A DNA stretch of 64,000 nt. It comes from Escherichia coli (lineage in GTDB: Bacteria > Pseudomonadota > Gammaproteobacteria > Enterobacterales > Enterobacteriaceae). The stretch lies in the NCBI RefSeq assembly GCF_003334305.1, contig NZ_QOWS01000007.1. One strand, given 5' to 3'. This document shows, one piece after another, positions 51,246-51,366 of this stretch. How positions within the stretch are numbered: the stretch's first letter is position 1; the number at the start of each line of letters is the position of its first letter. A program made the translations under genes and the position numbers. The notes beneath the pieces were generated by a model. That model was given only the letters and a program-made list of their open reading frames with translations. It did no database searches and had not been told where the DNA came from.

Positions 51246-51352
51246 GTGATGCCTCCCCGGCAAAATTATTTGATTTGTTCAGCCTGTCGCGGCCAATTGG
51301 TAAAACCATTGTTGCTTGAGTGTATATATACTCCTCAACCACCCTTGATTCT

Positions 51353-51366
51353 TTGATTTAAATCAA
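51353..51366. promoter_or_regulatory. FNR-type site upstream of grcA
   Basis: Perfect TTGAT-N4-ATCAA ~110 bp upstream of the grcA start, with an extra ttgat half-site at 51345-51349. Confidence 0.65.

Follow-up and report, generated by a model that had tools for sequence, protein, structure and literature searches.

Two FNR boxes at the class II FNR-dependent promoter of grcA (yfiD) in an Escherichia coli genome

The grcA gene, also named yfiD, is almost certainly expressed in the present DNA from the E. coli class II FNR-dependent promoter that carries a second, modulating FNR site. The DNA under study, hereafter called the window, is a 64-kb stretch from Escherichia coli, and an 801-bp segment around the FNR box is 100% identical to several sequenced strains. 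A perfect FNR box, FNR I, is the primary class II activating site of the grcA promoter rather than an upstream site. An imperfect box further upstream, FNR II, is an upstream, down-regulating site, as shown for K-12. The K-12 literature provides the evidence for FNR occupancy, FNR dependence, the site positions and the effect of FNR II mutation or deletion, and the present analysis contributes sequence identity, uniqueness and conservation. The experimental evidence was obtained entirely in K-12, with FNR occupancy and expression taken from published data, and we infer that the strain of the window behaves like K-12.

The eamB, grcA and ung locus is annotated in all 5,426 of the 5,426 complete E. 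coli genomes. In the window, the genes and the transcript boundaries of this locus are arranged as follows.

50862 to 51245, minus strand: coding sequence of grcA (yfiD), autonomous glycyl radical cofactor of 127 amino acids, from the open reading frame and the RefSeq annotation.
51550 to 52239, plus strand: ung, the divergent neighbor of grcA, from the open reading frame and the annotation.
50814 to 50841, minus strand: intrinsic terminator hairpin 3' of grcA, shared with the convergent eamB gene; a 12-pair stem followed by a T-run.
51246 to 51318, minus strand: 5' untranslated region of grcA, 74 nt when +1 is counted.

The grcA start codon is an ATG whose A is located at 51245 on the minus strand, and the Shine-Dalgarno sequence GGAGG occupies 51252-51256. 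The grcA-ung intergenic region is 304 bp long and contains both FNR boxes. The window aligns with K-12 MG1655 without gaps across the grcA promoter region. Six intergenic positions differ from MG1655 (51339, 51349, 51382, 51384, 51386 and 51393), and none of them lies inside either FNR box. The window and MG1655 are identical in the two 14-bp boxes and the 53-bp distance between them, as well as in the leader, the -10 element and the PdhR box. An Rfam scan of 50700-51700 returned two matches only, both at chance level (E 0.6-0.9; 18-21 bits against gathering thresholds of 100-111).

The promoter elements that carry the main finding are listed below.

51353 to 51366, minus strand: FNR I, perfect FNR box TTGATTTAAATCAA; center at 51359.5, corresponding to -40.5 from the grcA start; spans -47 to -34.
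51406 to 51419, minus strand: FNR II, imperfect FNR box TTGTTTTACATCAA, reading TTGATGTAAAACAA in the grcA sense; center at 51412.5, corresponding to -93.5; spans -100 to -87.
51319, minus strand: grcA transcription start (+1), inferred via the coordinates of published tables.
51325 to 51330, minus strand: -10 element TATATA, from -11 to -6.

FNR I matches the FNR consensus TTGAT-N4-ATCAA, as quoted in Myers 2013 (PMC3688515), at 10 of 10 consensus positions. The earlier note had reported a perfect TTGAT-ttaa-ATCAA sequence upstream of grcA, and this box is indeed found at 51353-51366. FNR I is the sole perfect TTGATNNNNATCAA in the 64-kb window when both strands are searched, and dinucleotide shuffles of the window yielded a mean of 0.06 perfect matches, with at least one match in 6 of 100 shuffles. 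The center of FNR I is 114.5 bp and its near edge 108 bp from the grcA ATG, in agreement with the earlier estimate of about 110 bp from the start codon. In Table 1 of Myers 2013, yfiD is listed as directly FNR-activated with a site at -40.5 and a ChIP-seq peak. Table S6 of the same study places TTGATTTAAATCAA at 2714579, under the ChIP-seq peak, with a PatSer score of 17.25, which is the highest of the whole table and is followed by narK and nirB at 17.06. Among E. coli genomes, a 32-mer query around FNR I is identical in 4,042 genomes, and most other matches are one base off. A side observation concerns the coordinate convention of Table S6: its footnote defines the coordinate as the site center, yet in the yfiD entry 2714579 is the position of the initial base of the 14-mer, as verified by sequence.

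What is the position of FNR I relative to the transcription start? The earlier note had left this question to start-site mapping, and published tables answer it by placing +1 at 51319 and FNR I at -40.5 as the primary class II site. The location of FNR I at -40.5 in Table 1 of Myers 2013 directly implies a start at 51319. The same position follows from the predicted ArcA site of Park 2013, which was reported at 2714524-2714555 and at -10/+22. The sequence of this site, TGGTAAAACCATTGTTGCTTGAGTGTATATAT, is identical to window positions 51298-51329, which verifies the mapping of U00096.2 coordinates onto the window, and its -10/+22 boundaries mapped to 51298-51329 again give a +1 at 51319. Both derivations may go back to one primer-extension experiment. 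The sigma70 ChIP-seq peak of Myers 2013 at 2714546 corresponds to window position 51320; in Table S2 of that study (PMC3688515), this peak is labeled 'Aerobic' and cannot separate grcA from the divergent ung gene. At 51319, the minus strand carries a T, which is uncommon as a start nucleotide.

The core promoter has the features of class II activation. FNR I is centered at -40.5, near -41.5, and overlaps the -35 region, and the promoter combines a weak or absent -35 hexamer with a recognizable -10 element. At least 95% of the orthologues in the anchored set retain the TATA core of the -10 element, and many other genera carry an extended -10 sequence, TGgTATATA, at the -10 position. A consensus promoter scan of the intergenic region, which is uninformative for ung, found no sigma70 -35/-10 pair, a result that fits an activator-dependent grcA promoter.

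The second box, FNR II, had been missed in the earlier note. FNR II is one mismatch from the FNR consensus, and its center is located exactly 53 bp further upstream than that of FNR I and 137.5 bp from the ung ATG. Table S6 of Myers 2013 (PMC3688515) lists TTGTTTTACATCAA at 2714632, 53 bp from FNR I, and the title of Green 1998 contains the phrase 'FNR occupying a site at -93.5'. One of the supplementary primers of a 2023 study in Metabolic Engineering (PMC10208419), m097, mutates exactly TTGATGTAAAACAA to generate the yfiD-m promoter. A 33-mer query around FNR II is identical in 5,288 E. coli genomes, and most other matches are one base off.

Published data from K-12 establish the binding of FNR to this region in vivo. 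The earlier note had proposed FNR ChIP data as a check on the site, and such data exist in the form of both ChIP-seq and ChIP-chip peaks at yfiD/ung. The FNR ChIP-seq peak of Myers 2013 at 2714605/2714607 corresponds to window positions 51379/51381, between both boxes, and Grainger 2006 reported an FNR ChIP-chip peak at yfiD/ung. In the comparison of the wild type with delta-fnr, Table S8 of Myers 2013 (PMC3688515) describes yfiD as 'Activated + + +', and Table S12, an aerobic versus anaerobic comparison, gives a value of 0.11 for yfiD. The listed regulators of yfiD are FNR(+/-), ArcA(+) and PdhR(-).

The two FNR sites make opposite contributions to the oxygen response. According to papers that relay the yfiD literature, FNR at -40.5 activates transcription, an effect that FNR at -93.5 suppresses. 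The 78-bp yfiD-P1 reporter fragment, as defined by the PMC10208419 primers, holds FNR I alone and is a strong oxygen-responsive promoter. The anaerobic activities of both yfiD-P1 and yfiD-m, in which FNR II is mutated, are far above that of the wild type. The wild-type yfiD promoter is more active under microaerobic than under fully anaerobic conditions, and a shift from anaerobic to microaerobic conditions raises both the yfiD transcript and the protein. Thus, the anaerobic induction of grcA that the earlier note had proposed stands insofar as the gene is directly FNR-activated (Myers 2013) and has an FNR ChIP-chip peak (Grainger 2006), but expression peaks microaerobically and is damped by FNR II at full anaerobiosis. 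The note had also suggested reporter assays with the FNR site mutated; the K-12 literature confirms the oxygen response of the fragment with FNR I alone, and the box mutated in yfiD-m is FNR II.

The two-box architecture is conserved well beyond E. coli. In a comparison of orthologous grcA loci among species, 62 of the 80 loci carried two FNR-like boxes 52-53 bp apart. Within the anchored set, 60 sequences (the window, K-12 and 58 loci) have their boxes 53 bp apart, and 4 loci have them 52 bp apart. A perfect proximal box is present in 40 of the 62 loci, and this box has one mismatch, usually GTCAA, in another 21. The distal box is perfect in none of the 62, and its imperfect AACAA half-site is found in 43, a pattern that is consistent with a deliberately weaker site. 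The box-anchored alignment contains four conserved blocks, namely, FNR II, FNR I, the -10 element and the PdhR box. Candidate FNR sites upstream of yfiD were also reported in 9 of 10 gamma-proteobacterial genomes (Ravcheev 2007). In our reading, a fixed five-turn spacing with an imperfect distal box is what the published weaker-upstream-site model would predict.

A different arrangement was observed in Pasteurellaceae. In the grcA promoters of this family (loci L045, L055, L059, L064, L069, L076 and L081), the FNR boxes are 42-44 bp apart, unlike the 53 bp described above, and sit about 230 bp upstream of grcA, whose start is at position 1501 of each locus. They lie upstream of a strong core promoter that consists of TTGAnn, a 16-17-bp spacer and TGaTAAAAT. 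The -35 element of this promoter overlaps a conserved palindrome, TTGA-N5-TCAA. By a rough count, the center of the proximal box would be near -46 to -49, unlike -41.

In addition to FNR, other regulators act on the grcA promoter, and two of their candidate sites map around the transcription start.

51295 to 51311, no strand assigned: PdhR-like operator AATTGGTAAAACCATTG for pyruvate-responsive repression, within the 5' untranslated region from +9 to +25.
51298 to 51329, plus strand: predicted ArcA site from published data, overlapping the -10 element, the start and the PdhR box.

The operator sequence AATTGGTAAAACCATTG matches the PdhR consensus AATTGGTnnnACCAATT. The block that contains this PdhR-like operator, CAACAATGGTTTTACCAA, is conserved across Enterobacteriaceae, and PdhR represses yfiD according to papers that cite Wyborn 2002. 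The ArcA site was predicted by Park 2013, who reported ArcA ChIP peaks at 2714537 and 2714570. The effect of ArcA on yfiD is negative in Park 2013 and positive, through anti-repression of FNR, in Wyborn 2002 as cited in later papers; this difference in sign looks like a discrepancy in the literature. IHF ChIP-chip enrichment has also been reported in the grcA promoter region.

Two further sequence features in the intergenic region vary between strains.

51345 to 51349, minus strand: extra half-site TTGAT (ATCAA in the grcA sense), in the -35/-10 spacer from -30 to -26.
51371 to 51391, minus strand: inverted repeat GACCACA-atcgatg-TGTGGTT followed by TTTTT, at -72 to -52 between the FNR boxes.

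Positions 51345-51366 read ttgat-tct-ttgatttaaatcaa, so that the extra half-site is separated from FNR I by 3 bp (tct, 51350-51352) on the grcA-proximal side. The earlier note had placed this TTGAT 4 bp upstream of the box, and both parts of that description need correction given that the spacing is 3 bp and that the half-site is upstream in plus-strand coordinates only. No partner half-site is present at the N4 spacing of FNR, where the positions read AATCA. K-12 carries A at 51349 and thus reads TTGAA, and the K-12 primers of PMC10208419 contain the same sequence. Among the 5,426 E. coli genomes, approximately 2,170-2,216 (about 41%) have T at 51349 and approximately 2,388 (about 44%) have A, and the remaining genomes have other variants nearby. 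ATCAA occupies the position of the extra half-site in 4 of the 62 orthologues. We therefore dismissed an FNR-related function of the extra half-site on the basis of its missing partner, its polymorphism and its poor conservation, and the half-site is most likely a nonfunctional, neutral variant of the spacer.

On the grcA-sense strand, the inverted repeat was flagged as resembling a terminator. Its fold has an energy of -7.6 kcal/mol (z -2.3) in the window and -10.0 (z -3.9) in K-12. Three of the differences from K-12 fall in the repeat, and the K-12 version still pairs. Similar CCAC/GTGG hairpins are found at shifted positions in Enterobacter and Lelliottia. A hairpin at this repeat is evident in Escherichia and for part of the Enterobacter and Lelliottia loci. 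Its wider conservation is not established, with a median z of -1.2 across 60 loci and values below -2 in 15 of the 60. The published promoter work was performed entirely on the K-12 allele. The variation around the invariant boxes (T/A at 51349 and the SNPs at 51382, 51384 and 51386) may adjust the microaerobic set-point of grcA from one E. coli lineage to another, or the inverted repeat may be the site of an unrecognized factor, and we regard this proposal as improbable.

These observations fit a model in which two FNR sites of unequal strength would shape the oxygen response of grcA. At low oxygen, [4Fe-4S]-FNR would dimerize and bind FNR I at -40.5. FNR in this position would overlap the -35 region and would recruit and activate sigma70 RNA polymerase, with transcription starting at approximately 51319 on the minus strand. 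FNR II is located five helical turns upstream and would thus present its bound FNR on the same face of the DNA. The weaker FNR II would be filled only at high levels of active FNR, and its occupation by FNR would damp the activation. Such damping at full anaerobiosis would make the promoter most active under microaerobic conditions. The microaerobic peak would coincide with the oxygen damage of pyruvate formate-lyase and the need for GrcA as a spare part. Inputs from pyruvate and the redox state would be added by PdhR, via the region from +9 to +25, and by ArcA.

Could FNR I instead be an upstream (class I or distal) site, with the true primary site nearer to grcA? The 114.5 bp between FNR I and the ATG leave space for a downstream promoter. 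However, the published site position of -40.5 comes with a 74-nt leader, the Park 2013 coordinates give the same start, and the conserved TATATA lies at -11 to -6. Moreover, the interval from FNR I to the ATG contains no FNR-like box at up to two mismatches, and the 78-bp fragment with FNR I alone already behaves as a strong oxygen-responsive promoter. We therefore consider this arrangement extremely improbable. It is even harder to view FNR I as a chance match or as a site for CRP instead of FNR. The sites of these two regulators are related, and at least one perfect match arises in 6 of 100 shuffles, but the box is conserved across genera at a fixed spacing, its half-sites read TTGAT as opposed to the CRP sequence TGTGA, and FNR occupies the region in vivo. 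Published FNR ChIP and delta-fnr expression data already refute a chance or CRP origin, which we accordingly give next to no probability.

The remaining alternatives extend or redirect the function of the boxes. The extra half-site at 51345-51349 could serve as a functional third half-site that aids or modifies FNR binding, in line with its exact sequence, its distance of only 3 bp from FNR I and the frequency of the T allele in E. coli. Such a role is very unlikely given the lack of an N4 partner, the presence of ATCAA in only 4 of 62 orthologues and the roughly balanced polymorphism at 51349. FNR dependence has been shown throughout in K-12, which has TTGAA, and FNR bound in the -35/-10 spacer would clash with RNA polymerase. 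The boxes could also control the divergent ung gene, in addition to or instead of grcA. Both boxes are located in the shared 304-bp region, FNR II is 137.5 bp from the ung ATG, and the ChIP tables use the label 'yfiD/ung'. Nevertheless, the yfiD passage of Table S8 in Myers 2013 (PMC3688515) goes from b2579 (yfiD) to b2669, and ung (b2580) is absent from that passage. Furthermore, the geometry between the boxes and the -10 element is anchored on the grcA side, as is the fixed 53-bp spacing, making control of ung by these boxes highly unlikely. Thus, we favor the class II FNR-dependent grcA promoter with FNR I as its activating site and FNR II as its modulating site.

Outside the grcA promoter, the window contains a few other positions related to FNR. 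The divergent yfiF/trxC intergenic region harbors a published FNR ChIP peak at 2716583 (window position of approximately 53357) and published ArcA ChIP peaks at 2716648-2716706 (approximately 53422-53480), and 53300-53560 contains no FNR box at up to three mismatches. The sequence TTGAGATACATCAA is found at 20573-20586, about 20 bp upstream of an ATG, and matches in sequence the glyA/hmp predicted FNR box of Table S6 (Myers 2013, PMC3688515), which lacks a ChIP-seq peak. One-mismatch matches at 28663 (purL) and 43399 (rseB) correspond to unbound intragenic sites of Table S6.

The FNR site at grcA is already well studied, and the finding is correct and ordinary. Its discovery value is small given that grcA/yfiD is a textbook example of class II activation by FNR in which a further FNR site upstream modulates the outcome, and the yfiD promoter is already in use as an engineered oxygen-responsive promoter. 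The gain of the present analysis is that the choice between a primary and an upstream site is settled (-40.5) and that the second FNR site is added. A modest by-product is the Enterobacterales-wide architecture of a fixed 53-bp spacing, a near-consensus proximal box and an imperfect distal box.

Compared with known systems, the closest counterpart is the K-12 yfiD promoter itself, which represents the same locus with FNR I at -40.5 and FNR II at -93.5, attributed to Green, Baldwin & Richardson 1998, Marshall et al. 2001 and Wyborn et al. 2002. The window differs from K-12 by strain SNPs only, one of which creates the extra TTGAT that is absent from K-12, and three of which alter the inverted repeat. 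The class II promoters of narG, nirB, dmsA and ydfZ (-41.5) resemble the grcA promoter in their need for FNR, in their poor -35 hexamers and in the location of an FNR box over the -35 region. In contrast, grcA has its center at -40.5 and an additional upstream FNR site that represses, leading to a microaerobic optimum. Predicted tandem FNR boxes under one ChIP-seq peak, as in grcA, are also listed at cydA (770333/770385), where they are 52 bp or about five turns apart, and at ompW (1311882/1311927), where they are 45 bp apart. Unlike the outcome at grcA, cydA is repressed by FNR. A similar principle has been described for tandem-CRP promoters, in which an upstream-bound activator of the same family lowers proximal activation (Lee & Busby 2012, mBio), as at yfiD. 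However, alpha-CTD is reported to be uninvolved at yfiD, and the mechanism of the yfiD promoter therefore differs from that of the tandem-CRP promoters.
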